Of a stretch of DNA of 64,000 bases, positions 5,765 to 59,455 are shown one piece after another. The stretch comes from an uncultured Peptococcaceae bacterium. Lineage in GTDB: Bacteria; Bacillota; Dehalobacteriia; UBA7702. Numbering within the stretch: position 1 is the stretch's first letter; every line of letters begins with the position of its first letter. The notes under the pieces were generated by a model. It saw only the letters and a list, made by a program, of their open reading frames with translations. It did no database searches and was not told the DNA's origin. Where the stretch lies: NCBI GenBank assembly GCA_964637365.1, contig CAZWWH010000005.1, forward strand, positions 18,980 to 82,979, written 5' to 3'. The position numbers were made by a program, and so were the translations under genes.

Positions 5765-5777
5765 ATCAAAAAGAGAA

Positions 5778-5811
5778 AACGCTGTGTCTTTTGACACAGC
5801 GTTATTTTTTG
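5778..5811. terminator. bidirectional rho-independent terminator between convergent genes
   Basis: Stem AACGCTGTGTC / GACACAGCGTT with a TTTT loop, followed by a T-run and preceded by an A-run. Confidence 0.8.
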
Positions 5812-7076: not shown

Positions 7077-7111
7077 GATTGCTCCTTTTTCTTTTACCAA
7101 TGTTCTTTCTT

Positions 7112-18333: not shown

Positions 18334-20184
18334 ATGGAATACACTGTCAATTTTAAATCCCATGGCAAAAGTGTTGCCGTGGAAGAAGGAAAAACTATTC
18401 TTGACGCCGCCGCCTTGGCCTCTATCGCGGTGGAAGGGAACTGTGGCGCAGCCGGTACCTGCGGCAAATGTAAAGTCCATGTAGTAGAAGGCTTTGACCC
18501 CAAGGCGGAACGTATCGGCGCGAAATTCTTTACGGAAGAGGAAATGAACGAAGGTTGGGTTCTGGCCTGCAAATATGAAGTGCATCAGGACCTCACCGTG
18601 GAAGTACCCATCCAGAAGGATGCATTTAGCCGTAAAACGAAGCTGAATTCTCTGTTGGACAACATTAAAATTAATTCCCCCGTGAAAAAAGTCTATCTGG
18701 AAATGGAAAAGCCCTCCATTCAAGACCAATGTCCGGACTTTGAGCGGATCATCCGCGCTTTGGAGCTCGACATCACAAAACAAAAACCCACCAGAGGTTT
18801 GTTGGCCATTATTCCCAAAACCTTGCGCGACAATCAATTCTGTGTCACTGCTGTGGTCAATGGTGATGATCTGATGTGGCTTGAAGGCGGCGATACGACT
18901 GACAAAAAATATGGTATGGTATTTGATATCGGCACCACCACTGTGGTGTGCTTGCTGATTAACTTGGAAACCGGTGATATTGAAGGCGCTGCTGCTGAAA
19001 CCAATCCTCAGAATGTCTTTGGCGCCGACGTTATTTCCCGTATCAACTACGTCATCTCCAAACAGGAAACAGGCGAAGGTTTGGCTCAGTGCCATGAAAA
19101 GGTCACTACCTGCATGAATGATTTAGCATTGCGCGCCGTGGCCGAGGCTGGCGTGGACAAATCCATGGTTTACGAAGCTACCGTGGTAGGGAATACCACC
19201 ATGAGTGAATTATTCGCCGGCGTGGATCCCTCTTATCTGGCTCCATCTCCTTTTATTCCGGGCTACGTTTCCGGCGTTCATATGACAGGGAAGGAATTGG
19301 GTTTCGATATCAATCCGGAAGCCCATGTTTACCTCTTGCCCAATATCGCGGGGTACGTCGGTTCCGATACCGTTGGCGTCATTTTAGGTACCCATATCCA
19401 TGAACGTCCCCAGTATAGCGGCGCTATTGACGTCGGCACCAACGGGGAAATCGTGCTGGCGGGGAATGGCCGTATTTTGGCTTGCTCCACCGCTGCCGGT
19501 CCTGCTTTTGAAGGTGCGCAAATCAAGTTTGGGATGCGCGCTGCCGAAGGCGCCATTGAGGCCGTCTACATTGACAACGAAGCCGGTACCTGCAAGGTGG
19601 ACACCATTGGCGATAAAAAAGCGAAGGGCATCTGTGGTTCCGGTATCCTCGATGCTATCGCTCAGCTCTATAAAAATAATATCATTGATTTCCGCGGCAG
19701 ATTCCGCGGGGACGCCGAAGACATTCATCCCGATTTGAAGGAACGCATGATCAAAACCGATGAAGGCTATGAATTCGTTTTGACCACTGCCGAAGAATCT
19801 GTCAAAGGCCGTCCCGTGGTGATTTGTCAGAAGGATATTGGCGAACTCCAGTTGGCCAAAGGCGCCATTTACGCTGGGTTCAAAGTGCTCATGTCGGAAA
19901 TGGGCATCACTGTTGACGATATGAAGGAAATCATGATCGCCGGCGCTTTCGGCAGCTATATTAAGGTAGAAAGCGCCATGGCCATTGGGCTCTTCCCTGA
20001 ATTGCCCAACGGCAAAATTATTTCCATTGGGAACGCCGCCTCTGAAGGGGCCAGATTGGCGTTGGTATCTCAGGAAGAACGGGAGCTCTGCGCTGAATTG
20101 GCCAGAAAAGCTGAATATATTGAGCTTTCCAGCCGTAACGATTTCCAGGATGAATACATTATGGCAATGTATTTACCCCAGTAA
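18334..20184 (+). CDS. RACo/AcsV-like corrinoid activation protein (2Fe-2S ferredoxin domain plus ASKHA ATPase domain)
   Basis: N-terminal 'GNCGAAGTCGKCKV...WVLAC' plant-type ferredoxin cluster motif. ASKHA-like 'GMVFDIGTTTV' and 'GAIDVGTNGEI'. 616 aa. Confidence 0.75.
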   Translation: MEYTVNFKSHGKSVAVEEGKTILDAAALASIAVEGNCGAAGTCGKCKVHVVEGFDPKAERIGAKFFTEEEMNEGWVLACKYEVHQDLTVEVPIQKDAFSRKTKLNSLLDNIKINSPVKKVYLEMEKPSIQDQCPDFERIIRALELDITKQKPTRGLLAIIPKTLRDNQFCVTAVVNGDDLMWLEGGDTTDKKYGMVFDIGTTTVVCLLINLETGDIEGAAAETNPQNVFGADVISRINYVISKQETGEGLAQCHEKVTTCMNDLALRAVAEAGVDKSMVYEATVVGNTTMSELFAGVDPSYLAPSPFIPGYVSGVHMTGKELGFDINPEAHVYLLPNIAGYVGSDTVGVILGTHIHERPQYSGAIDVGTNGEIVLAGNGRILACSTAAGPAFEGAQIKFGMRAAEGAIEAVYIDNEAGTCKVDTIGDKKAKGICGSGILDAIAQLYKNNIIDFRGRFRGDAEDIHPDLKERMIKTDEGYEFVLTTAEESVKGRPVVICQKDIGELQLAKGAIYAGFKVLMSEMGITVDDMKEIMIAGAFGSYIKVESAMAIGLFPELPNGKIISIGNAASEGARLALVSQEERELCAELARKAEYIELSSRNDFQDEYIMAMYLPQ

Positions 20185-23525: not shown

Positions 23526-24848
23526 ATGAGGAGAAATATTATGAACGTTTCTTTATGGAAAAAACATTGGCAGAAAGCGGTCTGTGTATTTGCAGTGTTG
23601 GCTGCTTTTGTCATTGCGATTTTGGGAACCACGGTATGGGCCGCCGACGCCGCAGAATTACCCGGCGCCCCCTATGATGATGAGGGAAATTATGATGTCA
23701 CGATCCCTCATATATTGGTGAATCAGGTCTATGGCGGAAGTGACGACGGATATGCTTCCCACAGCTTTATCGAACTTTATAATCCCATGGAGCAAGATGT
23801 TTTTCTAGAGGGATGGTCAGTGCAATATCGTTCTTCGGAAGATGGCGCCCAGGCCGACGCTTGGGCGAAATATGACCTCCACGGAACCATTAGAGCCAAG
23901 ATTACTACTTGATCCGCTATCCGCTGCGCTGCCATGACCGATGATTCCAATGTGGCTTATCAGGTGCCATCGGGCGATGGTCAATGGAAAATGTCTCTTC
24001 ATAACAAAGGCATATCTGTGGCTTTGATGAGCAATCAGACTCTTTTGGAAACCAATGACGTAATGTCCGCAGCGGGTTTTGTGGATTTGGCCGCGGCCAA
24101 TGGTAATGATGGCGAACCAGAACAATATGCCCCCGCGGTGGAAACTGCTGCTGATATTCAGTCCAAGAAAAAGGCTATCCGGCGGGTAGGTTTTGTGGAT
24201 ACCGATGATAACAGCGCCGATTTTGTCGCGATCAATTACAGCAATCCTGTTTCCGATGACCTTGGTCCTCATGGTGCCGCTCCGGAATTTACTGATGTGG
24301 CGGAAGACGCCTGGTATGCTTTGGCGGTGCAGTACACGGTGGAAAAGGGCTGGTTTCGGGGGATAACGGAAACGGCCTTTGGTCCTGATGTAACCATGAC
24401 TCGCGCTATGTTCGTCACTGTTTTGGGACGCCATGAGGGAATCGCCGACGCTTCCGCCGATACCCCCAGCACCACAGACTTTACCGATGTAGTTCTTACG
24501 CACTACTACGCCTCTCATGTGAACTGGGCGCAGGAAAATGAGGTTGTGGAAGGTTACAGCGACACGATTTACGCTCCCTTTGATGATGTTACTAGAGAAC
24601 AAATGGTGACCATGATGTACCGCTATGCTGCTGTTACGGGAAAGGACATTACCGTAAACGGTCTTGATGGTTTGAACCGCTTTAAGGATGGCGATAAAGT
24701 GGCGGACTGGGCCCAGGAAGCCATGGCTTGGGCTGTGGAACAGGGGATTATCTAGGGAATGGGGGACGATATGATTTCTCCCAAATCTACTGCCATCAGA
24801 GCACAAGTGGCCACAGTGTTACAGCGCTTCTTTACTGAATCAATATAG
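23526..24848 (+). pseudogene. lamin-tail-domain (LTD) plus SLH-domain surface protein, interrupted by in-frame TGA (23910-23912) and in-frame TAG (24753-24755)
   Basis: The two track ORFs (23526-23912 and 23934-24755), together with an unlisted 93-nt tail after the TAG (24756-24848), share one frame. Signal peptide present. LTD motif 'SFIELYNP...GWSVQYRS'. The SLH repeats continue past the TAG as 'GMGDDMISPKSTAIRAQVATVLQRF'. Confidence 0.8.
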
Positions 24849-26473: not shown

Positions 26474-27346
26474 TTATTTTTTCGGAAAAAGTTCCAACAG
26501 CGCAATGGCGGTTAATACCAGAATAACGCCAAAGCCTTGCATTGGAGCGATTGACTCTCCTAAAAAGGCGGCGGCCATGGTAATACTGAAAACAGGCTCC
26601 ATGGAGCCAACAATTCCAACCTTGCTGGGCGGAAGATATTGTAGTCCCCAGGCATAAAAGATGAAGGCTAAGGTATAAGGAATGGCCAAAATCAATATGG
26701 AGAGAAAATCCATTGCGCTGGGTATTTGTTCCGGCAAACAAAAGGGCAAGGTCAAGCAGTACAGCAGGGATGTGACGGTAAAGCAGCAAAAGTTGATGGC
26801 AAGTCCACTGTAAGAGGAAGAGAGATTCTTGACGAAAATGGCGTAAATAGCGATGCCTGCCGCGGCGCTCAGCACCAAGAGAATTCCGGGAAGGGACAGT
26901 TTTCCCAGATCCGCGCTGAAGATTCCAAGGGTAAGAAGAATGCCTAAAAACGTCAAAATCATCGCGGTAAGCGTGACTTTCGTGGGCTTTTCTTTATAAA
27001 CGAAGATGGAGGCAGCCACTAGCATCGCAGGATAGGTATAAAGCAACACCACGGCTATGGAAACGTCGAGATATACTAAGCTCAAAAAATAGCCGGCAGA
27101 ATAGACGAATAGTACAAAGCCCAAAATGATAAAGGTTTTTATGTCCTTTTTGGCGATGGAGATCTTTTCCTTTTTCACCATGAGAACTAAAAAGCCCAGA
27201 AGGATCGTGCAGATAATGGTGCGCAAAACCAATGTGAGCATTGGCGGTAGGCCGTCTGTAATAAGGAATTTACTGATGATACCGGTTAGGGCATAGCCCA
27301 AACTGGATAGTAAAACATAGATGAACCCTTTTTTACTTTGCGTCAT
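26474..27346 (-). CDS. DMT-superfamily (EamA) transporter, paralog 1
   Basis: 10-TM protein with two EamA halves. The internal ATG at 27346 ('MTQSKKGFIYVLLSS') overlaps the stop of the upstream paralog by 4 nt. Confidence 0.8.
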   Translation of the reverse strand: MTQSKKGFIYVLLSSLGYALTGIISKFLITDGLPPMLTLVLRTIICTILLGFLVLMVKKEKISIAKKDIKTFIILGFVLFVYSAGYFLSLVYLDVSIAVVLLYTYPAMLVAASIFVYKEKPTKVTLTAMILTFLGILLTLGIFSADLGKLSLPGILLVLSAAAGIAIYAIFVKNLSSSYSGLAINFCCFTVTSLLYCLTLPFCLPEQIPSAMDFLSILILAIPYTLAFIFYAWGLQYLPPSKVGIVGSMEPVFSITMAAAFLGESIAPMQGFGVILVLTAIALLELFPKK

Positions 27347-28311
27347 AGTCGCTCGTTGCCTTTCTCTATTGTCCGAGGTTTTTTCTTGATAAAGTTGAGT
27401 AAAAGATGCCCCTTTTCCATAAAAAGAATTCCGCCGAATACCAGTACGCAGCCGAGGAATTGCCATATGGTGAGGCGCTCACCCAGAATTAAAATGGCCA
27501 TAGAAACACTGAGGACAGGATCTAAAGTCACCAAAAGACTGGCCTTGCCCGCGTCAATATACTGCATGGACAGAGCATAAAGCGTATAGGCCGCCAAACC
27601 CACCAATGCCATGACGATGATACCGATGAGAGCTGTGTTCTCCCAAGAATACGAAGCAATATGTGGTGTGCCGATAAGAAAGAAAATGGGAAATCCCATA
27701 AAATAGCACCAGGAGTTTACAGTCCAACCGGGATAAAATGCATTGAGCTTTTTCGTAAAAATTGTGTATAGGGAGCTTAAAAGCCCGGACATCAGCCCGA
27801 TAAGAATACCGAAAATGGCAGAGGGCATACCAAAAATTTTTGCACCCCCATCAGCAGACAGGGAGCCGATATTGAAAATCTCAATGATGAAAAGAATGCC
27901 CAGGAAGGCCATGATCATAGCTATGACTTTTGGGGCTGTAAAGGCCTCTTTCAGCATGATGCGGGATAGAAGAACCGTAAATACCGGTAAGGTGTAAAGG
28001 AGCACCGTGGCGACAGCCGCATCAATATAATAAAGGGAGCAATAGTTGCACACAGAGATAAAGCCAAAGCTGAGCCCATTGAGAATGAAGAGATGAAGAT
28101 GTTCCTTTTTGATTTGGAATACATAACGGGCAGAGCAAAGTGCGTATATCAACAGTAGTACAGCGGGAATCATGCCCCGCAATGTCACCACCACTTGCCA
28201 GGGCAAACCTACGGCAAACATCAGTTTCCCTAAGATTGGTCCCAGGGAATAGCAGAAGGCCGCCAGCAGACAAAGAATCACTCCTTTGTGTTCGATGGAT
28301 TTCGTTGCCAT
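27343..28311 (-). CDS. DMT-superfamily (EamA) transporter, paralog 2
   Basis: 10-TM EamA architecture. Closely similar to paralog 3. Confidence 0.85.
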   Translation of the reverse strand: MATKSIEHKGVILCLLAAFCYSLGPILGKLMFAVGLPWQVVVTLRGMIPAVLLLIYALCSARYVFQIKKEHLHLFILNGLSFGFISVCNYCSLYYIDAAVATVLLYTLPVFTVLLSRIMLKEAFTAPKVIAMIMAFLGILFIIEIFNIGSLSADGGAKIFGMPSAIFGILIGLMSGLLSSLYTIFTKKLNAFYPGWTVNSWCYFMGFPIFFLIGTPHIASYSWENTALIGIIVMALVGLAAYTLYALSMQYIDAGKASLLVTLDPVLSVSMAILILGERLTIWQFLGCVLVFGGILFMEKGHLLLNFIKKKPRTIEKGNERL

Positions 28312-28360
28312 AATGAGACACTCCTTGCACAGTGCTGCGGAATAGGTTTTTGGGGTCTCC

Positions 28361-29287
28361 TTAGCCTATTTTTTTTGAACGGAGGAAGTTTAGTACGAGA
28401 TATCCTTTTTCAATAAAGATGATGCCGCCCAAAACTAAGACGCAGCCAATGAATTGAAAAATAGTCAAATGCTCTCCTAAAATAAAGATGGCCATAGTTA
28501 CGCTGAAAACTGGATCTAAGGCTACAAAAAGGCTGGCTTTGCCGGCGTCAATATATTGCATGGAAAGGACGTAAAGGGAATATGCGGCAAAACCAATCAT
28601 GGCAATGGCCAAAACGCTGGCCAAGGAGAAGCCACTCCAAGAAAACGCAGCAATTTCTCGAAATCCCACAATCAGAAAGATGGGGAATCCAGCAAAAAAG
28701 CACCAACAGTTTACGGTCCAACCGGAATAGTATTGATTGAGTTTTTTGGTGAAAATGGTGTAAAATGCGCTAAGCACGCCGGACATGATGCCGATGAGGA
28801 TGCCGAAAATTGACGAGGGAATTCCCAACACTTTGGTGCCGTCCGAAACAGCCAGAGAGCTGATATTGAATACCTCAATGATAAAGAGTACACCGCAGAA
28901 CACCATAATCATAGCGATAATTTTCGGAGCAGTAAAAGCTTCCTTTAAAATAATGCGGGAAAAAATTACGGTAAACACCGGCAAGGTATAGACCAGCACC
29001 GTGGCGACGGCCGCGTCAATGTAGTACAGGGCGCAATAATTACACACGGAAAATAGGCTGAAGCTGGCGCCGTCTAGAATAAACAGGGGCAAATGCTTTT
29101 TCTGGATTTGAAAGACCTCCCGAGAGAAACAAAGGCTGTAAATCAGAATCAGCATTGCCGGAATCATGCAACGTAAAGAAACGACGACTTGCCAGGGTAA
29201 GCCCGCGGAAAACAGCAGTTTTCCGGTAATGGGTCCCAGAGAAAAGCAAAACGCCGATATGATACAAATGAGAATACCTTTTTTTTC
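28361..29287 (-). CDS. DMT-superfamily (EamA) transporter, paralog 3
   Basis: 10-TM EamA architecture. About three quarters identical by eye to paralog 2 over the N-terminal half. Start 'MEKKGILICI'. Confidence 0.85.
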   Translation of the reverse strand, partial: EKKGILICIISAFCFSLGPITGKLLFSAGLPWQVVVSLRCMIPAMLILIYSLCFSREVFQIQKKHLPLFILDGASFSLFSVCNYCALYYIDAAVATVLVYTLPVFTVIFSRIILKEAFTAPKIIAMIMVFCGVLFIIEVFNISSLAVSDGTKVLGIPSSIFGILIGIMSGVLSAFYTIFTKKLNQYYSGWTVNCWCFFAGFPIFLIVGFREIAAFSWSGFSLASVLAIAMIGFAAYSLYVLSMQYIDAGKASLFVALDPVFSVTMAIFILGEHLTIFQFIGCVLVLGGIIFIEKGYLVLNFLRSKKIG

Positions 29288-29576
29288 CATAATAACTCCT
29301 ACCAATTACGAATTAGGAGATATGCAATATGTTTTATGTATAATTATTTTATAAAAGAAAGAAAAAAATCAATTTCATTATAGCACCGACCTGAAAAAAA
29401 TGGAATAGTTTTTGACGAAATGATGAAATTTTTGCGAAAGACGTGGTTTGATTTTATAAAGTGGCCAAAATCTTGCGAGGATAGGGCGAGATAAACGTTA
29501 CCGAGAGGATGCGTTTTGCATGGTATGAAATAATATGGTATAATAAAAGCACGTAATCACAGTGGGGAGGGATTGC

Positions 29577-46013: not shown

Positions 46014-46226
46014 AATGGAATCGTTGATGGAAAAGTATTCTTTACTGATATGGAAGGTCGTGTCTGGCGGTATCAGGTGGGATGGATTGAAGTTCTGGAA
46101 CCCGAATCAGTGGAAGAAATGGTGGTGCCCAAGGCGAAAGCGGATTGGGACTTAACTCTGTTTACTTGTACGATAGGAGGACAGACCCGCCGGGTGGTTA
46201 GGTGTATCAGGATTGAGGGCGAATGA
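46014..46226 (+). pseudogene. sortase remnant (C-terminal catalytic-Cys/Arg region only)
   Basis: Translation 'NGIVDGKVFFTDMEGRVWRYQV...DWDLTLFTCTIGGQTRRVVRC' carries the sortase TLxTC Cys motif and the conserved Arg. An in-frame TGA at 46011 separates it from a hydrophobic N-terminal-anchor-like stretch (45960-46010). The His-containing core is absent. Confidence 0.6.
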
Positions 46227-46480
46227 AAAGGATGTACTGGACATGGGGCAAACTTTTTACCAATTGATGACAATATCTGCTGGTCTGTGGAGATGATAAA
46301 AGTGAGAAATTGTAAAAAAATAATACTACGAGATTAATGAGAATTAAAAGGTCAAACGGCATAGCCCGTAGGCTACGCCATTTCCCGAAAACAATTTTAT
46401 ACTGTTTTGACGAACACTGTCTTAAAAAGCGGTGTTTTTTTATGGTTTTTGAAGATGGATGCTTTTGAGCACAAGGCTGG

Positions 46481-46756
46481 TTACCAGTGCCCCAAGAGAT
46501 ATGGAGCAAAAAAACAATAACATCTGAGGGGTAAAAAATCGTCGCCGGTCTTGGGTGAAAGGTTACCTTTTCCAAATTGTGAGTCTGGTGTGATGTTGTC
46601 ATTGGAGGAATTATCCGCATAGATAAATTGGAAGGAGGTTCCTTTCTCCATCGGAGCCGTGTCATTGGTTGCCGCAAACAATAGGGATGGAGAAAGGAGA
46701 GAGACACACAACAAGGATAGGGTCAAAATTGATAGAAAACGAATCTTATTCCGCAT
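46481..46756 (-). CDS. small secreted protein with an SPKTG sortase-sorting-like motif
   Basis: Signal peptide 'FLSILTLSLLCVSLLSPSLLFA'. 'LSPKTGDD' is followed by a hydrophobic C-terminus. The start overlaps the stop of the upstream gene (coupling). Confidence 0.5.
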   Translation of the reverse strand: MRNKIRFLSILTLSLLCVSLLSPSLLFAATNDTAPMEKGTSFQFIYADNSSNDNITPDSQFGKGNLSPKTGDDFLPLRCYCFFAPYLLGHW

Positions 46757-47270
46757 CGGTTAAGGCAATGCCGTAAGTCATACTGCCAGTATAGGTAACG
46801 CCTTTGGCCGTAGTGGGAGCGACGACGGGTTTTACAACGTAGTTGACGGTACCGTTATCGGTAAAGGAAGCCAGTTCTGTGCCGGTTGCGGTATCTTTCC
46901 CAGTGGTTTCCACGGTGGTACCATCTTCCGTGATGATTTGATAACGAAGAACTTTGTTTATGCCTTGATTATCTTTGCCTTCCAATACCATTTGGTTGCG
47001 GTAGTAGTTAGTACCAGCGATGGTGACAGCAATTTCTTTTCCACCGAGATTCGCTACATTTTCCGCCGTGATATCCACAGTGGTGCCATCTTGAGCAATG
47101 GTGACAGCCGAAGGAATGGTCACGGTATAGATGGGATCATTCTGTACGGTAAAAGTAAAATCAGTACCCAAATTTTCAGTAGTTGTCTGGTCTGCGGTAG
47201 CAGCAAAGGCAGGCAGAGAAAAACCAAGACACATGGTGGCGGCCATAATGGCGGAGAGTAATTTTTTCAT
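46746..47270 (-). CDS. secreted Thr-rich beta-rich protein of unknown function
   Basis: Signal peptide 'MKKLLSAIMAATMCLGFSLPAFA'. RBS AGGAGGAAC upstream. No family recognised. Confidence 0.65.
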   Translation of the reverse strand: MKKLLSAIMAATMCLGFSLPAFAATADQTTTENLGTDFTFTVQNDPIYTVTIPSAVTIAQDGTTVDITAENVANLGGKEIAVTIAGTNYYRNQMVLEGKDNQGINKVLRYQIITEDGTTVETTGKDTATGTELASFTDNGTVNYVVKPVVAPTTAKGVTYTGSMTYGIALTDAE

Positions 47271-47332
47271 AATTGTTCCTCCTGAATGATAATAAAATAG
47301 TATTTATAAAAACGCTGCGTAAAGCCGCTGTT

Positions 47333-47800
47333 TTATTCCACGGTAAGCTCTGTGGAAACTTGGGCGCGGTTTAACGGCGTTGTTTTGTCCATGGTGTAAG
47401 GGGAAATTTCAATCATGAGGGTGTATTCTCCAGAAGGCAGCGGATGATTTAGTGTAATCTCCTCAAAGGCTTGACCCGGTTCAAGGAATTCCGAGGTGTA
47501 AAGAGGTTCGTTCTCTTCTTCTAAATAAAGGGTGAATAGAAATAGACAATCGTTATCTTCGGGGTTCCAAAGGGTGATGGGAACCTTTTGGGTATCAGCG
47601 GGGAAATATAGATGGGAGTAACCGGGGATTTTGATACCGGGGTTTTCCGAAGCATAGGCAATTAGGTTTTTGCCGTCCCATTCCGTTATGGAATCATCTT
47701 GTCCTTCGGTTATATGTAAAAGCATGGCCATTGTGACCAAGGCTGCCATGATAATAACGATGGAAATGATGATTGCTATACGTGTTTTCCTGATTGTCAT
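47333..47800 (-). CDS. N-terminally membrane-anchored protein of unknown function
   Basis: One TM helix 'IAIIISIVIIMAALVTMAMLL' followed by a ~120-aa extracytoplasmic domain. First gene of a three-gene minus-strand operon. Confidence 0.6.
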   Translation of the reverse strand: MTIRKTRIAIIISIVIIMAALVTMAMLLHITEGQDDSITEWDGKNLIAYASENPGIKIPGYSHLYFPADTQKVPITLWNPEDNDCLFLFTLYLEEENEPLYTSEFLEPGQAFEEITLNHPLPSGEYTLMIEISPYTMDKTTPLNRAQVSTELTVE

Positions 47801-48039
47801 GGAGGATTATCCTTTCGTTGAGGGTTGTAATTTATTATAGACGTGAAAATCAAGAGATATAGAGGAATTTCGTTAAATCTTGGTTAAAATGAAAAGCCAA
47901 ATTATATGCTTAAGAACGTAGTAGTTTTAAAAACTAGTTTCCAATAAATACGATTATATTTTTAGAGATAATAACAAAATGGAATCACCAAACTGTTGCT
48001 TTTTTTCAAAAAAAACAAGTATAATGAAAATAGAGATCA

Positions 48040-48215
48040 ATACGCAACGGTAAAGTGATGGAATCGGGTGTAAATCCCGAACGGGCCGGCCACTGTAAAT
48101 TCGTAGTCTCCAAAGTATCGACGAGTATTATGAAAAGTCAGAATACATCCTTTGTCGGAACCTCTGGGAACGGGGGACGCCTATGGTCTGTGTCATAACA
48201 GGCATGGATAAGGGA
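48040..48215 (+). promoter_or_regulatory. cobalamin (B12) riboswitch aptamer
   Basis: The core 'GGAAUCGGGUGUAAAUCCCGAACGGGCCGGCCACUGUAA' (48060-48098) matches the conserved GGGAA..GGUGAAAAUCC..CGG.CCCGCCACUGU block. B12-box-like 'AAAGUCAGAAUAC' at 48134-48146. Candidate promoter TTGCTT-18-TATAAT at 47996-48025. Outer boundaries are approximate. Confidence 0.8.
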
Positions 48216-48345
48216 ATCATAGGCACGACTGCTGATAAACGCTTACTTCTGTGTTGCTTGCTTCAAACCAGACTTGAAGCAGCGGACTTGGATTAAAGTT
48301 GTTCATAACAGCCTATTTGTCGAAAAGACTTCTTCGACAATTTGA

Positions 48346-48380
48346 CCGTATCTTGGAGTGAGATACGGCATTTTTGTTTT
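48346..48380 (+). terminator. intrinsic terminator, likely expression platform of the B12 riboswitch
   Basis: CCGTATCT / AGATACGG stem with a 7-nt loop, followed by CATTTTTGTTTT. It lies between the aptamer and the ATG at 48512. Confidence 0.75.
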
Positions 48381-48511
48381 ATAAAAAGGCCGATATTCAT
48401 GGGCGTAATGACCGTTGTCACAAAAATGCAATATCAAGAAAAGAGAAATCGCGCGTTATTCATTGCATTGATGATCACGATGTGAAAAACGAAAAAAGAA
48501 AGGAAAGAAGC

Positions 48512-51500
48512 ATGAAAAAAACACTGATTGTTCTGTTGTTGACGCTGGCCATGGTATTATCCATGGGTGGGGCTGTCCTTGCCGAAGACAGCAGCGTCTA
48601 CACAGTGTCGGTAGCTACCAGCGACCTGACCCTGACTGCAACAGACAGCCAAGGAAAGGCTGTGACACTAAAAGACGGCGGTATTGTAGATAGTTATCAC
48701 CAGTATACCTTTGAAGGGGCTCCCGGTACCTACACTTTCTCCGCGGTAGATGAAAAGGGTAGCTGGGGAACGGTGACAATGAAGATGGATGCTGAAACAT
48801 CTTCTGTGGTACTGCGGGCGACGACCTTGGCCGTCAGCACCAAGGTAGACAGCAATTATCTGTCTGCGGATCAGTATCGTATGGAGGTTTTCTGTCCTAC
48901 GGATGTTAGCGTAACTCCTGGGATTATTGATGTGGCGGACAATGGCCAAAGCAAGAACCGTTATCTCTTTTATGCCAACGGCAACGCTACCGTATATGCC
49001 GCTGCGGTCTATCCCGTGGATGAAAGTTTAACCCTCCAGTTTGCGCAGTTATCTAGGGCTGTAACAGTGGGTACCAGCGTTAATGCTTTAACCATGAGTA
49101 TGCCCCAGGCCGTGCAGGGAGTATTTACCGTACCCCATGGCGCTGACTTAAAAATTGAAGCAAAATTAGTCAATTATAAAAATATGGAGGTTACCTCCTT
49201 TACCAAGGTGGAAGGAGACACCACCGATACTTATACTTATAAGCTGCCGAAAAGCAATTCCAGCCTTACTTATCGCTGTACTTTGGCGGGGAAGGTAACC
49301 CGCGCCGGGTATTTGACCACTTCGAAAGATTTTGAAAAAGAAATTGTCTTTTCCGATGAAGCTCCGGACGCGCGTCCCGGCTATGCTGCTGATGGTGGCA
49401 GCGGTTATGGCTATGTAGAAGACAGTATGCTGATGAATATCAGCGACAGCAACTATATGGTCATGGCCCAAGGTGATACCTTCCGTATTCGTCCCTATCG
49501 GGCATGGCAGATCGTAAATAATACTTCCAGCAATTTGATGATTGAGCCTGATTATCATTTTCGTGTGGTAGAAGGCAACTCCGTAACGGTGGACGCCAAA
49601 GGTCTGCTGACGGCTGTAGGAAATGGTGTCAGTGTGGTGGAAGTGACCTATGACGCCATTGATGTCGATGGCTGCGGTATTTACAACGGCATTTATGGTG
49701 CCGTGGATCCTGACCGCAAAGGCATATTTGTTGTCAATGTCGGCGGCAAAGCTGATTCTTTTGATACCGGTATTAAGTTGACAGAGTTTGATACTGTCTA
49801 CCATACTGACAAAGAGGCCGGTTCCTATACCTTTACACCTCCGACAGGGGCAACGGTGGAAGTGAATGGTAGCACTGTGGCCGCTGCAGAGGATGGCTCT
49901 GTGACCCTGCCTTTGCAAAATGGCAACAATATTGTAAAGGTGACCAAGGGAAACGATGTACAGTATCATGTAATTAAATGTAAAGAAGTTACCATCAATA
50001 TTAAGAACACCACCAATCCTGATGCTACTGTGGTGAAACAAGGCGATACCCTTGAGATCTCCTTTGAAGGATTATCCATGCCGATTCCCAAAATGAGCGG
50101 GATCTATAACCCCGGTTATATGGGAACTGCCCGTGTGCTTTATGAAATTGCCGGCGGCGGTTCTATGGGCAGCAAAGGTGTGCAGTATAATCTTATTTCC
50201 AGCAATACCATCAGCGCTACCATGTGGCAAAGCGGAACTTGCCATTTGCAGAATGGGCATATCAGCTTAACCAGTATGGGGGATCCATTTGGTGAGCACC
50301 GCACCATTGATGATAGTGGACGTGGTGCCAACTTTAACGCATTGGAACGAAGCGGAGAGTTTAGTCCTCTGCCAGATATCTCCATTGAAGTAGAACCCAA
50401 CAGTGAAGTGGTATTTCCTGAAAATTTCAGCGATCTTTCCAAATTGGTCATGTACCATGGTACCAGCTCTTTTGTGTGCAGCTTCAGCAAATCCTTGAGT
50501 GCCACGGCTGCCAAACCCATTGATCCTAACACCGTCGTGACCTTCACCTCGGCGAAATGGAAAGAAACCTACGATATGGTAGCCACTGCTACGACTTCAC
50601 AACCGCAGGTGGATATTACGGTTCAGTATGGCCATGGCACAGAAGGCGACGGCGGCACCGCCAAGCTGTTGTCCGGCGTGAAAGGCACTTTGGGAACAGG
50701 TATTATCAGCGCTGACAAAGTGAATTATCTGGATTTTGTGGTGACTCCCACCGACGAATCCCTGGGTAGTCCTAAAACCTACTCCATCTTAGCTTACAAC
50801 ACTGACACGGTGAAAAATCCCGGATTGAAAGATATCACTTTGTCTATGGAAGAAGGCGTGACATTAGAAGCTGGCCAAGGCGTTTTAAGCTCCGACAAAG
50901 GAGAAGGCTTCTTCCTCTCCCAACGTGAATATGTTGCTGAGGTTCCCTGTGACGTAAGCAAGGTGACTTTGAACTGGACAGCCATCAACGCTGCCAGCAA
51001 GGTAAAAATCAATGGCACTGAAATTGTTGAGGAAGCCTCTTCGGAAGTATTGCTTACCTCTGGAGAAAACAAAATTACTTTGGAAACCACCGCTGCCGAT
51101 GGCAGTGAGGCTATTGTTTATACGATCAACGTCACCAGAGCGCCGAAGCCCGAAGCTCCCCTCAATGATTTGCGGGTATACAATGCTTATTCCATCAGTG
51201 CTTCCACAGCTTTACTCCAATACTCTACGGACAATTACGGCGACAATATTCCCCGTTTTGACGCCAACACCAGAGAGTATAACTTGGCGCAGCAAATGGA
51301 TGGAGCATCCTTCTATCTTCGTTCCAAATTTGATACCACTTATCAAACAACAGTGTCTGTCAACGGCGGCAATGCTGTTGAAATCAAAAATGATTCTTAT
51401 AAGTCCTTTTCCTTATCTGCCGGTAAAAATAAGGTAGTCATTACCGTGACACCTCCAGAAGACAGCGAGTACGGTGTGGGCCAATATACACTTTATGTGG

Positions 51501-53911
51501 ACTATTTACCCTGTGTTACCTCAATGCCTTTGAAAATAGACGGTGTCGCCCTCGATTTGGAGCCGGCCTTTAAAAAGGATATTAATCAGTACAACGCAGT
51601 AATTCTTGATAGTGCAAAGACCTTGACCATCGATAGGGCTTACACCAAATCAACGAATACCGTGAAGGTCAACGGGAAAGAGTACAATGGCGGCTATTTC
51701 AGCTGCGATGTGGATATTACAGATTTGGATAAGATCGAAGTCGCCGTTAGCGGCGGCAGTGGTGAAAATGCCTTGAGCAATACTTATACCATTAACCTGA
51801 AAAAGGCTACTACTGGCTATCTCACCATGAATGTGACTCCCACCGACGCTACGGTTAAGATTTTGGATGCCAAAGGGAATGAAGTAAAGCCCGATGAAAA
51901 CGGTAAATATGCCGGTATGTTCACGGAAAAGGTTTATACCTATTCGGTTATGAAGGAAGGATATATTCCTGCCAAAGGTACTGTGCCTCAGGAAGCAGCT
52001 CCCGTGATCAATGTTGATCTGGAAAAGGCCGTTCCCATGGATATCACCTTCAGTGTCCAGGATGGCAACCGTTATCTTATGTCCCGTCAGACAGTGAAAC
52101 CTGTGGCAGGGTTGGCAGAGCTTTACGGCTACTCTTATGGCGATAATGTAAAACCTGCCGACGTGACTGCTTTAGACGCCTTGGTAGCTGCTCATATTGC
52201 TTACTATGGCGATGAATTTACTCCTGAAACTGCCCAAGATTTCCTTGATATTGCGGAAAACAGCGGCATGATTCGGAGAATGTTTGAGAAGGAATCCTCC
52301 AGTTTGGGCTTTGCCGTCAACGGGCGCTGCCCCAATGATGGTGTACAGGTAGGGAATGGTTATACCGGTTATGCTGTTCATCAAGGGGTAATCAGTGCCA
52401 ATGATGTTGTGGAATTTTTCTTCTATCAGGACAGCTACTGGAGTGACCAGTATGTATGGTTTGAACAGAATGGCAAAAAGACTGAAGCTGTTACCGTGGC
52501 ACAGGGGGAACCTGTGACCTTATCCCTCCGGGGCTTCCCCTATGGTTATTACAGCTACGCTACGGAAGAATACATCGCTATGATGACCAGCGATATTGCC
52601 AATGCTCAGATTTCCAAGGTAAATATGAGTAACGGTCGTTTGGTCGCCATCAAAGATGCAGTCACTGGCAGTGACGGCGAAGCTCGTGGCAAGGTGACTC
52701 TGACCTTTGACAAAGCCGGAACTTATGTCATTTCTGCCAAAGGCGCTGACTCCAATAATTATCTCATCTCACCTTGGTGCGTGGTGACCGTTACGGAGCA
52801 GGGTTCTCAAACCGTGATTGCTATGGTCGAAGCCTTGCCGGAGACCATTACCGCAGAACAAAAAGCCGATGTGGAAGCTGCTCGCAAAGCTTACGATGCT
52901 TTGAGCGATGAACAAAAGGATTTAATTCCTGATAATATCCTCAAAAAATTAGAGGATGCGGAAAACGCTCTTAGCGCTTTGGAGGACGCTTCGGCACAGA
53001 GTGTGGTTAAAATGATTCAGGCTTTGCCTGCTCCTCATAAAGTGACTGTCAATGATGAGGAAGCTGTAAAGGCCGCCAGAGCTGCTTATGAAGGTCTCAG
53101 TGCCGGCGAAAAAGCCAAGGTTACCAATGTGTCCCGTTTGGAAGAAATTGAAGACGCTTTAAGTGGCCTAAAGGTAAAAGCCGTAAACGACGCCATCAAT
53201 GCCTTGCCTGACCAAGTTACCTTGGAGAATAAGAACGCGGTGGAAGCTGCTCGCGAAGCCTACGACGCCTTGAGTGACAAGGAAAAAGGCGAAATTGCTG
53301 AGGAAACCTTGGCTAAATTGATCCAGGCTGAAGAGGCCTTAAAAAATACTCCCCACACCTTACCTTTCAGCGATGTTGCGGAAACCCAGTGGTTCTATCA
53401 AGATGTGGTTTACGTTTATGAAAATAATATTATGAGGGGCATGACTGACACCGTGTTTGGCCCTCAAGAATCCATGACCCGCGGGCAATTCGTTGCCATT
53501 TTAGGCCGTATGTCTGGAGTGGAGGACAGCAATCCGAAAACTCCCGTTGAAACCAAATTTGGTGATGTGAAAGCGACTGCTTATTATGCGGCTCACATTG
53601 CCTGGGCTACGGAAAAGGGTATTGTCAATGGTGTTTCGGAAAGCGCCTTTGCTCCTGAAGAAAAAGTGACCAGAGAGCAGATGGCTGCGATGATGGCTCG
53701 CTATGGAGAAGCTATGGGCATTGATTTGCCTGCAGCCGACGGAAATGCCTTTGCCGATGATGGAAAAATTTCCGCATATGCAAAAGAGGCAGTTTACCGC
53801 ATGAAAGCTGCTGGAATCCTTCAAGGTCAAGGAGGGAATCTCTTTAATCCCAAAGGCAACGCCAATCGAGGCGAAGCTGCCAAAGTGATCCATCTTTTCA
53901 TGGAGCTTTAA
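48512..53911 (+). CDS. giant (~1,799 aa) SLH-anchored multidomain surface protein with cadherin-like beta-sandwich repeats and a DUF4430/transcobalamin-like segment
   Basis: Signal peptide 'MKKTLIVLLLTLAMVLSMGGAVLA' after an AAAGGAAAGAAG RBS. Three cadherin-like sandwich repeats (~50.82-51.81 kb). DUF4430-like 'TALDALVAAH...GFAVNG...ISANDVVEFFFYQD' (~52.04-52.44 kb). Three 'ALP..V....V.AAR.AYD.LS..EK' helical repeats. Three C-terminal SLH domains (~53.35-53.91 kb). Confidence 0.85.
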   Translation: MKKTLIVLLLTLAMVLSMGGAVLAEDSSVYTVSVATSDLTLTATDSQGKAVTLKDGGIVDSYHQYTFEGAPGTYTFSAVDEKGSWGTVTMKMDAETSSVVLRATTLAVSTKVDSNYLSADQYRMEVFCPTDVSVTPGIIDVADNGQSKNRYLFYANGNATVYAAAVYPVDESLTLQFAQLSRAVTVGTSVNALTMSMPQAVQGVFTVPHGADLKIEAKLVNYKNMEVTSFTKVEGDTTDTYTYKLPKSNSSLTYRCTLAGKVTRAGYLTTSKDFEKEIVFSDEAPDARPGYAADGGSGYGYVEDSMLMNISDSNYMVMAQGDTFRIRPYRAWQIVNNTSSNLMIEPDYHFRVVEGNSVTVDAKGLLTAVGNGVSVVEVTYDAIDVDGCGIYNGIYGAVDPDRKGIFVVNVGGKADSFDTGIKLTEFDTVYHTDKEAGSYTFTPPTGATVEVNGSTVAAAEDGSVTLPLQNGNNIVKVTKGNDVQYHVIKCKEVTINIKNTTNPDATVVKQGDTLEISFEGLSMPIPKMSGIYNPGYMGTARVLYEIAGGGSMGSKGVQYNLISSNTISATMWQSGTCHLQNGHISLTSMGDPFGEHRTIDDSGRGANFNALERSGEFSPLPDISIEVEPNSEVVFPENFSDLSKLVMYHGTSSFVCSFSKSLSATAAKPIDPNTVVTFTSAKWKETYDMVATATTSQPQVDITVQYGHGTEGDGGTAKLLSGVKGTLGTGIISADKVNYLDFVVTPTDESLGSPKTYSILAYNTDTVKNPGLKDITLSMEEGVTLEAGQGVLSSDKGEGFFLSQREYVAEVPCDVSKVTLNWTAINAASKVKINGTEIVEEASSEVLLTSGENKITLETTAADGSEAIVYTINVTRAPKPEAPLNDLRVYNAYSISASTALLQYSTDNYGDNIPRFDANTREYNLAQQMDGASFYLRSKFDTTYQTTVSVNGGNAVEIKNDSYKSFSLSAGKNKVVITVTPPEDSEYGVGQYTLYVDYLPCVTSMPLKIDGVALDLEPAFKKDINQYNAVILDSAKTLTIDRAYTKSTNTVKVNGKEYNGGYFSCDVDITDLDKIEVAVSGGSGENALSNTYTINLKKATTGYLTMNVTPTDATVKILDAKGNEVKPDENGKYAGMFTEKVYTYSVMKEGYIPAKGTVPQEAAPVINVDLEKAVPMDITFSVQDGNRYLMSRQTVKPVAGLAELYGYSYGDNVKPADVTALDALVAAHIAYYGDEFTPETAQDFLDIAENSGMIRRMFEKESSSLGFAVNGRCPNDGVQVGNGYTGYAVHQGVISANDVVEFFFYQDSYWSDQYVWFEQNGKKTEAVTVAQGEPVTLSLRGFPYGYYSYATEEYIAMMTSDIANAQISKVNMSNGRLVAIKDAVTGSDGEARGKVTLTFDKAGTYVISAKGADSNNYLISPWCVVTVTEQGSQTVIAMVEALPETITAEQKADVEAARKAYDALSDEQKDLIPDNILKKLEDAENALSALEDASAQSVVKMIQALPAPHKVTVNDEEAVKAARAAYEGLSAGEKAKVTNVSRLEEIEDALSGLKVKAVNDAINALPDQVTLENKNAVEAAREAYDALSDKEKGEIAEETLAKLIQAEEALKNTPHTLPFSDVAETQWFYQDVVYVYENNIMRGMTDTVFGPQESMTRGQFVAILGRMSGVEDSNPKTPVETKFGDVKATAYYAAHIAWATEKGIVNGVSESAFAPEEKVTREQMAAMMARYGEAMGIDLPAADGNAFADDGKISAYAKEAVYRMKAAGILQGQGGNLFNPKGNANRGEAAKVIHLFMEL

Positions 53912-53933: not shown

Positions 53934-53968
53934 AGAGACAGCCTGCGGGCTGTCTCTTTTCTTTTTTT
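53934..53968 (+). terminator. rho-independent terminator after the giant surface protein gene
   Basis: AGAGACAGCC / GGCTGTCTCT stem with a TGCG loop and a long T-run. Confidence 0.9.
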
Positions 53969-56741: not shown

Positions 56742-56804
56742 AAATGCCCAGCTGCACCCGGAAAATCAAGCTAAAATTTATATCATCAGAAAAGAATGAA
56801 TGAA

Positions 56805-56834
56805 AAGCCGTATCCAGAAGGATGCGGCTTTTTT
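56805..56834 (+). terminator. rho-independent terminator after the ABC-F gene
   Basis: AAGCCGTATCC / GGATGCGGCTT stem with an AGAA loop, followed by TTTT. Confidence 0.85.
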
Positions 56835-56856
56835 ATGGAAGAAAGGAGACATGTCC

Positions 56857-58104
56857 ATGGAGGATGAGGGCCGCAAGGTGGATATTTCCGCTGTGGTAGG
56901 AAAGAGATACGGTGCTTTTTGGCGGTATCGAGGACGCTATCGGGTGGTCAAAGGGGGGCGCGGTGCAAAAAAAAGTGCTACTACGGCGTTGTGGTACATC
57001 TATCATCTGATGAAATATCCTAAGGCTAATTTATTGGTGGTACGGCGTTATGTCAACGGTCATAGGGACAGTACTTGGGCTCAACTGAAGTGGGCTGCCA
57101 AACGGTTGGGTGTGGCAAATTTATGGAAAAGTACACGAACACCGCTTTCCATGGAATATTTACCCACAGGGCAAAAGATTCTATTTCGGGGCATGGACGA
57201 CCCAGAAAGCATTCATTCCATTACTGTGGAGCGGGGGTACTTATGCTGGGTTTGGGTGGAGGAGGCCTTCCAAATTGAGGAGGAGGGGGCTTTTGACAAG
57301 TTGGATATGTCCATCCGCGGCGATATGGAGAAGGGATATTTTAAACAGTTGACTTTGACCTTTAATCCTTGGTCAGGGCAGCACTGGTTAAAGGAGCGTT
57401 TTTTTGATTGTCCTTCCGAGGATGTACTGGCGCTAACCAAAACGTATCTTGACAATGAATTCCTTGATGACCACGACCGTGACCTTTTTGAGGAAATGAA
57501 GCGCCGATTCCCACGGCGGTACGATGTGGAGGGTTTGGGGCAGTGGGGCATTGCCAGTGGACTGGTTTATGAAAACTGGCGGGTAGAGGATTTTGATTGG
57601 CGAGAAATTGCTGCCAAGCGTTCTGATTCTCGAGTGCTGTTTGGTTTGGATTTCGGTTTTACCCATGACCCCACGGCTTTGATCGGTTGTGTTGTCGATG
57701 AAGGGAAACGGGAGATTTTTATTTTTGATGAGATTTATCAAAGGGGAATGCTCAACAGCGATATCGCCCAAGGGATTTTGGATCGCGGCTATGGGAAATG
57801 CCGCATCATTGCCGACAGCGCTGAGCCCAAGTCCATTGCGGAGCTGAGGCGTTTGGGAATTTCTAAAATCACGGGAGCTAAGAAAGGCCCCGACAGTTTG
57901 CGCCACGGCATTCAGCGGCTGTGCGGTTATGAGATGGTAATACACCCGCGCTGCGTTCATACCAAAGAGGAGTTGGAGTCCTACATCTGGCAGGAAAGCG
58001 GCGGTATGCTGCAAAATATCCCTGTGGACTGTAACAACCATCTGATGGACGCGCTGCGCTATGCTACCGAAGGATTGGATCGTAATATCTTAGTTTTAAA
58101 ATAG
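56857..58104 (+). CDS. phage terminase large subunit (PBSX/Terminase_3 family)
   Basis: Walker A-like 'VVKGGRGAKKSATTA', 'LLVVRR', and a nuclease-domain C-terminus 'NNHLMDALRYA'. The ATG at 56857 lies 8 nt after GGAG. The track start at 56800 lies inside the upstream terminator. Confidence 0.88.
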   Translation: MEDEGRKVDISAVVGKRYGAFWRYRGRYRVVKGGRGAKKSATTALWYIYHLMKYPKANLLVVRRYVNGHRDSTWAQLKWAAKRLGVANLWKSTRTPLSMEYLPTGQKILFRGMDDPESIHSITVERGYLCWVWVEEAFQIEEEGAFDKLDMSIRGDMEKGYFKQLTLTFNPWSGQHWLKERFFDCPSEDVLALTKTYLDNEFLDDHDRDLFEEMKRRFPRRYDVEGLGQWGIASGLVYENWRVEDFDWREIAAKRSDSRVLFGLDFGFTHDPTALIGCVVDEGKREIFIFDEIYQRGMLNSDIAQGILDRGYGKCRIIADSAEPKSIAELRRLGISKITGAKKGPDSLRHGIQRLCGYEMVIHPRCVHTKEELESYIWQESGGMLQNIPVDCNNHLMDALRYATEGLDRNILVLK

Positions 58105-58114
58105 GAGGTAATTT

Positions 58115-59455
58115 ATGAAATCACTGACGGAAATTTTGGGAGCACGAAATTGGAAGGCATTGGAGAAGTTTTGTAATGAATTGGTGGCATCAGAAATGTT
58201 AAGAAACGGCGCCGCCATGGAGGGAAAGCGTTATTACGAAAATGACAATGGCATCCGCCGCAAAAAGCGCATGGATGAATTGATGGCGGTAGCGCGGAGG
58301 GACCGCAACCCGTTACGCAATGCAGACTTCCGTATTTCCCACAATTGGCATCAGCTTTTGGTGAACCAGAAGGCCTCGTACCTATTTACCTATCCTCCCA
58401 TGTTTGACTGCGGTATTGACAGCGTCAACGAAAAAATCAGTACGGTACTGGGAGAGGATTTCCCTCGAAAAGTAAAAGACCTGGCCATTGACGCTGCCAA
58501 CTGCGGTATGGCCTGGCTCCACTGTTGGGTTGATTCCAAAGGGCGGTTCCGTTATCATACCGTACCTATGGAGGAGATTTATCCATTGTATGACAGTGGT
58601 TTGGAACCGGCGATGGAATATTTGCTCCGCATTTACGACGGAAAAAATCAAGATGGGAGCATGGTGCGGAAGGTGGAAATTTGGAATGAGCGAGAGGCGC
58701 TGTTTTTCCGAAAGGAATCCAACGGAGCATTGGAGCCTGACGGCTGTTTTGATGGCGGAGCATACAGTTGGGAGCATGGTATGGGAGAGATTCCTTTTGT
58801 GCCCTTTTATAATAACCGCAGCCGCAGCGGTGATTTGACCATGGTGAAGGATTTGATAGACCAATATGATTTGGTGGTTTCAGGCTTTGCCAATGATCTT
58901 TCCGATATTCAGGAGGTCATTTTTGTGCTGCGGAATTACGGCGGCGAGGATCTTAACACCTTTTTGTCGGAACTAAAACGATACAAGGCCATTAAGGTGG
59001 AGGGGGATAGTCTCAGCGCCGGCGGTGTAGAGACCATGAGCATCGAGATTCCCATTGAGGCTCGAGTAAAATTTTTGGAAATTTTGAAGCGGCAGATTTT
59101 TATCTCGGGACAAGGGGTGGATCCAGACCCCGCTTCCTTTGGCAACAGCTCAGGTGTGGCTCTGAAATATCTATACAGTCTTTTGGAAATCAAGGCGGGG
59201 CTGCTGGAAACGGAATTCCGCGCGGGTTTTAAGTCCTTTCTCCGCATGGCGCTCCGTTATTTGAATGTTCCGGAGGATTTGCCTGTGATGCAGATTTATA
59301 CGCGGAACGCCATTGAAAATGATTTGGAAACCGCGGAAATCGCCCAGAAGAGCCAGGGAGTCGTCAGTAAAGAGACGATTTTGCGCAATCATCCCTGGGT
59401 GGAAAATGTTGGTCAGGAAAAGGAGGCGCTGGGTAAGGATATTTTTTCGGAGTAA
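58115..59455 (+). CDS. phage portal protein (SPP1 gp6-like)
   Basis: 446 aa immediately after terL. Portal-like conserved blocks ('NWHQLLVNQKASYL', 'DLIDQYD', 'DLSDIQEV'). Confidence 0.8.
   Translation: MKSLTEILGARNWKALEKFCNELVASEMLRNGAAMEGKRYYENDNGIRRKKRMDELMAVARRDRNPLRNADFRISHNWHQLLVNQKASYLFTYPPMFDCGIDSVNEKISTVLGEDFPRKVKDLAIDAANCGMAWLHCWVDSKGRFRYHTVPMEEIYPLYDSGLEPAMEYLLRIYDGKNQDGSMVRKVEIWNEREALFFRKESNGALEPDGCFDGGAYSWEHGMGEIPFVPFYNNRSRSGDLTMVKDLIDQYDLVVSGFANDLSDIQEVIFVLRNYGGEDLNTFLSELKRYKAIKVEGDSLSAGGVETMSIEIPIEARVKFLEILKRQIFISGQGVDPDPASFGNSSGVALKYLYSLLEIKAGLLETEFRAGFKSFLRMALRYLNVPEDLPVMQIYTRNAIENDLETAEIAQKSQGVVSKETILRNHPWVENVGQEKEALGKDIFSE

Follow-up and report, generated by a model that had tools for sequence, protein, structure and literature searches.

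The stretch of DNA analysed here, hereafter the window, comprises 64,000 nucleotides from an uncultured Peptococcaceae bacterium and contains, at 48512-53911 on the plus strand, a gene encoding a protein of 1799 aa, preceded by a leader that matches the cobalamin riboswitch family RF00174. We propose that this locus is a single-gene unit repressed by a cobalamin riboswitch and that its product, a protein predicted to be anchored to the cell wall by SLH domains, captures environmental corrinoids, a reading to which we assign a probability of roughly two in three. It is based on the riboswitch, on a two-domain module of the protein (residues 1173-1429, 257 aa) whose first domain is remotely related to DUF4430, and on the relatives of this module and of the N-terminal part of the protein (N-region, residues ~25-628), which are repeatedly encoded behind cobalamin riboswitches. 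An initial annotation of the same DNA had suggested a riboswitch-repressed surface scavenger of corrinoids; the riboswitch, the DUF4430 homology and the regulon of the relatives support this suggestion, in which corrinoid binding itself is the conjectural step.

A short cobalamin riboswitch in the leader and its counterparts in related loci

When Rfam 15 was searched at gathering score with Infernal, no match was obtained anywhere in the 64-kb window. An Infernal scan by E-value, in contrast to this, aligned RF00174 (gathering score, 31.5 bits) with positions 48016-48168 of the plus strand at 28.0 bits (E 4e-5), covering model positions 1-189, with high posterior probability across the core and the B12 box. 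The core GGAATCGGGTGTAAATCCCGAACGGGCCGGCCACTGTAA is found at 48060-48098 and the B12 box AAAGTCAGAATAC at 48134-48146, exactly where the initial annotation had read them, and its other coordinates for the locus are likewise correct; the RF00174 search which it had named as a check gave a significant match that stays below the gathering score. No other riboswitch was found within the window. The aptamer is short, with weak P1 and P2 helices and a truncated P6 extension (19 nt vs 50 in the model), which also costs score.

A scan of a genome collection recovered one full-length orthologue only, in a metagenome-assembled genome of Candidatus Cryptoclostridium obscurum (locus L001). Its protein is 71% identical to that of the window, the neighbouring genes are the same, and its leader matches RF00174 at the syntenic position (5641-5787, 30.2 bits, E 1.7e-4). 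A sliding comparison of the two leaders gave peaks of 80-87% identity over the core (48043-48100) and over 48117-48165, corresponding to the B12 box and the 3' strand of P1, whereas the remaining intergenic DNA is 0-40% identical; the coding sequence is 70% identical at the nucleotide level. Conservation that peaks on the core and the B12 box is the pattern expected from purifying selection on a ligand-binding RNA. The RF00174 match in the leader is therefore real although sub-threshold, and this short aptamer shows that real cobalamin riboswitches escape Rfam's gathering score.

The decisive evidence is comparative. Strong cobalamin riboswitches stand immediately upstream, on the same strand, of all three module relatives that were found first (L002, 73.6 bits; L003, 78.3 bits; L004, 96 bits). 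A metagenome scan with a 4-sequence alignment gave 18 further module loci, of which 6 have an above-gathering riboswitch directly upstream (non-redundant: L007, L008/L009, L011/L012 and L022), corresponding to 4 of the 13 assessable non-redundant metagenomic loci. Among the loci fetched for the N-region the proportion is 5/6 (L024-L028, 37-69 bits), and the sixth one, L029, is flanked by a gene for a CobA/BtuR adenosyltransferase and by a DUF4430-CbiQ pair. Over the ~230 kb scanned, all 12 non-redundant cobalamin riboswitches are located upstream of a family gene and on its strand, with none elsewhere. The survey of homologous loci advocated by the initial annotation thus yielded 12 non-redundant related loci with above-gathering riboswitches, a guilt by association well beyond chance that supports a role of both families in the B12 regulon.

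The genes found together with the relatives encode SLH+DUF4430 proteins, SLH+alpha/alpha-toroid proteins, DUF4430 proteins, CbiQ, an ABC ATPase and CobA/BtuR. In L024-L026 the operon starts with the N-region protein and continues with SLH+DUF4430, SLH+alpha/alpha-toroid and DUF4430 proteins, an arrangement which, judged by its domains, amounts to a putative SLH-anchored split transcobalamin. L004 encodes, in this order, the module protein, a toroid-like protein, DUF4430 and an ABC ATPase, and resembles the energy-coupling factor (ECF) system of L. sakei. A short arrangement is that of P0001, which consists of the module and a wall anchor only and is the first gene after its riboswitch. Other RNA motifs were also seen in these loci. 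A type-P1 twister ribozyme match (RF03160, 55.5 bits for a gathering score of 67.2, E 1e-9) at 1066-1129 (+) of L015 extends over the start (1089) of a gene for a module+DUF4430 protein, and a DUF3800-XI RNA motif (32.2 bits, gathering score 37.8) is located at 9442-9489 (+) of L028, downstream of the riboswitch-controlled operon.

The leader of the window contains an intrinsic terminator at 48346-48380 (+), as initially annotated, with a 10-bp hairpin and a T-run recovered by the terminator scan (stem 48346-48368, 3-nt loop, -12 kcal/mol). The terminators of the window and of L001 are homologous; their common 5' arm, CCGUAUCY, keeps its register, and the stem shows one compensatory change, from U-A to C-G. 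Directly 3' of P1 lies a candidate switching element (48161-48176, +), within which 48162-48173 pairs with the 5' arm of the terminator (48346-48358) over 12 bp at -14.8 kcal/mol (shuffle p 0.014); the counterpart pairing in L001, 5781-5795 with 5847-5861, reaches -19.1 kcal/mol (p 0.0005). In duplex scanning this element was the best partner of the terminator 5' arm among all upstream 17-mers in both species. In minimum free energy (MFE) folds the same element forms an alternative small local hairpin, at the place where cobalamin riboswitches carry P13. These competing pairings, anti-terminator against local hairpin, lead us to read the leader as a putative transcriptional OFF switch, presumably dependent on ligand. 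Neither the aptamer nor a clear anti-terminator came out of MFE folding of the leaders; the latter was seen in duplex scanning only. A kissing interaction of L5 with the terminator loop or with a P13-like loop was also considered; its energies are weak (~-7 kcal/mol) and it remains speculative. Between the switching element and the terminator, a structured spacer of ~170 nt (48177-48343, +), predicted to form about three stable hairpins, is missing from the leader of L001.

Transcription would start at a candidate sigma-70-type promoter at 47996-48025 (+), TTGCTT-18 nt-TATAAT, whose position was confirmed in the sequence. Its -10 hexamer is perfect and is kept at the aligned position of L001 (TTGATT-16 nt-TATAAT); the promoter scan omits this site because the -35 hexamer matches at 3/6 positions only. 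The start codon ATG at 48512 is preceded by a ribosome-binding site, AGGA, at 48501-48504. As had been claimed, the gene is the only one before the next terminator, a strong one located at 53934-53967 (+), which has a 10-bp stem with 6 GC pairs and a T-run and would delimit a monocistronic unit. An island of ~25 nt (GATAAT/AACAAAATGGAATC, 47952-47980) matches L001 5572-5596 amid diverged intergenic DNA, at a place just upstream of both the riboswitch promoter and a divergent promoter-like site (47930->47901); it may represent an operator or a shared promoter element. Three small open reading frames of the minus strand (166, 174 and 155 aa, 46207-47800), divergent from the riboswitch promoter region, are syntenic in L001 and gave no Pfam match.

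A divergent transcobalamin-like module and an N-region linked to B12

The initial annotation had recognised a DUF4430-like segment at ~52.04-52.44 kb. This segment fails the membership threshold of Pfam and stands as a remote homology, as indicated by profile-profile comparison. When a module alignment of 35 sequences was compared with a DUF4430 alignment of 96 sequences using hhalign, a probability of 94.5% was obtained (E 7.8e-8, 73 columns), the aligned stretch corresponding to residues 1217-1304 of the window protein (nt 52160-52423). The controls, consisting of domain 2 of the module, of 20 column-shuffled alignments and of a reversed one, never exceeded 2.6%. Smaller alignments (A7 against A6, in which 16/16 reference sequences are canonical DUF4430 by Pfam) gave 81.7% (E 1.1e-5). 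Pfam searches of the 35 members of the module family returned weak DUF4430 matches in only 4 of them, the best at 1e-3.

The module was modelled with AlphaFold2 from the 35-sequence alignment with high confidence (predicted local distance difference test, pLDDT, 97; predicted template modelling score, pTM, 0.92); a model made from the 4-sequence alignment (pLDDT 48) was discarded. Domain 1 (52028-52447, +) shows the order beta-beta, long helix, beta-hairpin and three strands, which agrees with the transcobalamin-like SLBB fold, described as a beta-grasp with a beta-hairpin insert after the helix (PMC1796856). It is a predicted beta-grasp, divergent, transcobalamin-like and related to SLBB/DUF4430. 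Domain 2 (52448-52798, +) is a prealbumin/CarboxypepD_reg-like beta-sandwich of the immunoglobulin (Ig) type, as indicated by Foldseek and by PF13620 (CarboxypepD_reg) and DUF4198 matches in 16/35 family members, and it is always joined to domain 1. We consider domain 1 as a remote homologue of the C-terminal beta domain of transcobalamin and as a candidate corrinoid-binding site. His 1228, part of the motif TALDALVAAH, hardly varies across the module family and is not conserved in canonical DUF4430; that it acts as a cobalt ligand is speculation. Further conserved residues of the module are Y1205, G1206, D1222, N1270, G1271, D1298 and D1307.

A word-indexed search for relatives of the module found three only, and an exhaustive profile search gave 1,638 cluster representatives at E<=1e-3, including 281 at E<=1e-30. 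The module occurs mostly within large multidomain proteins, in one to five copies each, and 70 of 151 module proteins carry a canonical DUF4430 elsewhere in the chain. In a tally with hidden Markov models, almost all loci of sufficient length had module, N-region and DUF4430 together; the proteins of the window and of L001 are unusual in that they combine N-region and module with no canonical DUF4430.

The N-region (~600 aa, 48584-50398, +), which the initial annotation had overlooked, has no Pfam or PDB match. DUF4430, the module or DUF4465 are the fusion partners of its 12 homologues. Two of these homologues, P0152 and P0154, consist of module and N-region, while in the paralogues P0153 and P0155 a canonical DUF4430 takes exactly the place of the module, both domains standing before the N-region. 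The N-region of P0163 is joined to a DUF4465 domain of the BtuJ type, a domain for which B12 binding has been demonstrated structurally and biochemically (PMC13398666). The link of the N-region to B12 is no weaker than that of the module.

The remaining parts of the protein would serve export, spacing and attachment. A predicted Sec signal peptide, MKKTLIVLLLTLAMVLSMGGAVLA, judged by eye from the translation, occupies residues 1-24 (48512-48583, +). Cadherin-like beta-sandwich repeats follow in four stretches over residues ~800-1100 (approximately 50900-51810, +); Pfam confirmed these repeats, for which the initial annotation had named PF12733 (2.3e-18, best 800-876), and they presumably form a stalk. 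Behind the module, three helical repeats of ~60 aa (ALP...AAR.AY..LS..EK; residues 1430-1612, 52799-53347, +), read in the translation and matching no Pfam family at E<=1, are presumed to act as a spacer. The three SLH domains initially claimed were found by Pfam in 3 stretches (PF00395, 1.4e-31; residues 1618-1793, 53363-53890, +) and resemble the SLH structures of B. anthracis Sap (6bt4 and 3pyw). Beyond these SLH matches, nothing useful came from the PDB, whether the query was the segment, the whole protein or a profile of the module or of the N-region. The signal peptide together with three tandem SLH domains predicts a non-covalent anchor to the cell wall.

The proposed capture of corrinoids and its alternatives

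From these elements we infer a ligand response, an anti-terminator mechanism, corrinoid binding and a hand-off to an importer, as follows. Transcription would probably start from the promoter at 47996-48025, and the short aptamer would sense intracellular corrinoid. Without ligand, 48162-48173 would pair with 48346-48358 and RNA polymerase would read into the gene. With ligand, the element would stay at the aptamer, folded into a local hairpin of the P13 type that possibly kisses L5, so that the terminator at 48346-48380 would form and the gene be switched off. The protein would be exported through its Sec signal peptide, held on the wall by its three C-terminal SLH domains and projected outwards by the helical and cadherin-like spacers. 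Corrinoids would then be captured by the beta-grasp/Ig module, possibly also by the N-region, and passed on to an importer in the membrane, whose gene would lie elsewhere in the genome.

A number of observations, on the RNA as well as on the protein, weigh against this proposal. Both aptamers, that of the window (28.0 bits) and that of L001 (30.2 bits), score below the gathering score of RF00174, and both have several non-canonical pairs in P1, P2 and P3, which cost score. In MFE predictions the terminator forms whether the 3' side of the aptamer is free or not; with a terminator predicted in both states, switching does not follow from thermodynamics alone. Roughly half of the loci of the module family are without a riboswitch, and in some 10 assessable module loci none was detected even below threshold (L006 was scanned at gathering score only). 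One of them is L005, whose protein P0014 (6001-11922) has the architecture closest to that of the window protein, with N-region, cadherin-like repeats, module and SLH domains; its 770-nt upstream region contains no detectable cobalamin riboswitch, sub-threshold matches included. P0014 also carries a canonical DUF4430 at residues 1592-1630, so that neither the control by a riboswitch nor the presence of DUF4430 is constant within this architecture.

The low scores, the mismatches in P1-P3, the terminator predicted under both constraints and the riboswitch-free L005 would all fit an aptamer in decay, left as a constitutive or otherwise regulated attenuator in front of a generic SLH adhesin or S-layer-associated protein unrelated to B12. 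We regard this as very unlikely, since the core is 80-87% identical between flanks of 0-40% though the proteins are only 71% identical, since the anti-terminator complementarity is kept in L001, and since both domain families recur behind bona fide riboswitches.

On the side of the protein, DUF4430 (PF14478; Pfam gathering score, 23.8 bits) was matched by Pfam neither in the whole protein at E<=1 nor in the isolated segment at E<=10, and NCBIfam likewise did not find DUF4430 in the protein. A Foldseek search of the PDB, in which the two-domain model was the query, returned Ig-like matches only, falling on domain 2, with no transcobalamin in the top 50; of the structural check put forward by the initial annotation, the order of elements in the AlphaFold2 model fits, with no such match from Foldseek. 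Unlike most of its relatives, the window protein has neither a canonical DUF4430 nor an alpha/alpha-toroid partner, and no transporter partner is encoded for it in the 64-kb window.

A protein lacking both DUF4430 and toroid could belong to the B12-acquisition apparatus and yet not bind corrinoids, being instead a wall-anchored scaffold or accessory that docks SLH-anchored transcobalamin-like alpha/beta proteins, releases corrinoids from food or host binders, or binds producer cells. Such a role would fit the operons of relatives, in which the N-region protein comes first and SLH+DUF4430 and SLH+toroid proteins are encoded separately, the N-region with no recognisable binding fold, and the cadherin-like repeats, typical of adhesive proteins. 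It accounts less well for the relationship of module domain 1 to the B12-binding SLBB domain, for the replacement of DUF4430 by the module at the same position in paralogues, and for short module-only proteins such as P0001 which are themselves first after a riboswitch. We therefore consider a non-binding scaffold as unlikely.

The nature of the ligand also has to be considered, as the captured molecule might be a corrinoid precursor or a different tetrapyrrole, haem for instance, in place of complete cobamides. A preprint argues that the split transcobalamin-like alpha/beta proteins Lsa1839/1840 serve haem uptake (bioRxiv 10.1101/864751), and module domain 1 has diverged strongly from canonical DUF4430. 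However, this claim for L. sakei rests largely on docking, the control by cobalamin riboswitches is seen here and in 12 related loci, and the neighbours include a CobA/BtuR adenosyltransferase and DUF4465. The probability of a ligand other than cobamides is, in our opinion, very small indeed.

The genomic surroundings are those of an ordinary chromosomal region of Clostridia, with clpC, radA, disA, ispDF and gltX through mfd to spoVT, and then phage terminase and portal genes. Among the housekeeping genes, a gene for a RACo-type reductive activator (18334-20184, +; Fer2 and RACo linker, middle and C-terminal domains) shows that the organism uses corrinoids and depends on corrinoid enzymes, and further SLH proteins at 5847-7100 and 23934-24755 indicate that it uses the SLH anchor generally. 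The phage genes, for a large terminase and an SPP1-type portal (56800-59455, +), directly follow spoVT and an ABC-F gene and mark a prophage, or what remains of a phage, next to the locus. Three tandem paralogues of EamA-family transporters were also observed at 26474-29305 (-).

Comparison with known B12 capture systems

The aptamer shares with cobalamin riboswitches of RF00174 (clan CL00101) the core, the T-loop-like GGUG..AAAUCC, the ACUGUAA and the B12-box elements, and it likewise stands in a 5' leader, on the same strand as its gene and followed by an intrinsic terminator. It differs by its length, ~150 nt only vs ~190-320 nt in the related loci.

Concerning the protein, the initial annotation knew of no characterised protein of this kind; the concept has a precedent. 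Burroughs et al. predicted in 2007 the scavenging of B12 by secreted multidomain proteins with transcobalamin-like SLBB domains in Gram-positive bacteria of low GC content, together with CbiO/CbiQ-type transporters (PMC1796856). Like the window protein, those proteins are secreted, wall-associated and multidomain, with a beta-grasp related to the C-terminal domain of transcobalamin and a predicted role in B12 scavenging. The combination of toroid, DUF4430 and a CbiQ/ABC set, known from this class and from the L. sakei Lsa1836-1840 ECF system with its split alpha/beta proteins (10.1101/864751), also occurs in L004, L024-L026 and L029. The window protein differs from this class in having no canonical DUF4430 and no toroid, its SLBB-like domain failing Pfam and being always fused to an Ig-type sandwich. 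It further differs by its undescribed N-region of ~600 aa, by an SLH anchor rather than LPXTG, and by being encoded by a stand-alone gene with no adjacent transporter; riboswitch control is not mentioned in PMC1796856. Full-text literature searches found no description of the module, of the N-region or of riboswitch-controlled SLH proteins.

In mammals, transcobalamin, intrinsic factor and haptocorrin capture cobalamin extracellularly, and their C-terminal beta domain is a remote homologue of module domain 1. These binders sandwich B12 between an alpha/alpha-toroid and the beta domain, whereas the window protein has no toroid and a fixed Ig-like partner.

The characterised surface B12-binding lipoproteins are BtuG, BtuH and BtuJ (DUF4465) of Bacteroides (PMC8941943, PMC13398666, PMC13616437). 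They are riboswitch-repressed, surface-displayed accessory binders of corrinoids which feed a membrane transporter, as is proposed here for the window protein, and a further likeness comes through the N-region relative P0163 with its DUF4465 fusion, the only relative with this domain. Searches of Pfam and PDB gave no sequence homology of the window protein to the BtuG beta-propeller, to the BtuH C-terminal domain or to DUF4465, and a homology to BtuH, which had been considered, was rejected. The Bacteroides proteins are outer-membrane lipoproteins working with BtuB, while the window protein belongs to a monoderm, with an SLH anchor and no BtuB partner.

A broader interpretation, to which we give somewhat less than even odds, is that N-region and module are two undescribed families that bind or handle corrinoids and that, together with the SLH-anchored split transcobalamins, they might form a Gram-positive counterpart of the Bacteroides relay. 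As part of this interpretation, a new B12 pocket between the divergent SLBB and the Ig-like domain would replace the alpha/alpha toroid, His 1228 being the candidate cobalt ligand. If binding holds true, ~1,600 protein clusters could be annotated, further folds would join the repertoire of B12 binders, and the BtuG/H/J relay would have its equivalent defined in monoderms. According to a 2026 review, extracellular cobamide capture in Gram-positive bacteria "remains entirely uncharacterized" (PMC13616437). For this acknowledged gap, the extracellular competition for cobamides by Gram-positive gut and environmental bacteria, the locus and its relatives offer testable candidates, namely the compact module of 257 aa, small enough to be expressed, and the N-region, neither of which is covered by Pfam. 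Compared with these known systems, the locus does not represent a categorically new one; it is a variant of a kind already predicted and still uncharacterised, to which it mainly adds two unannotated families of the B12 regulon and a short riboswitch.

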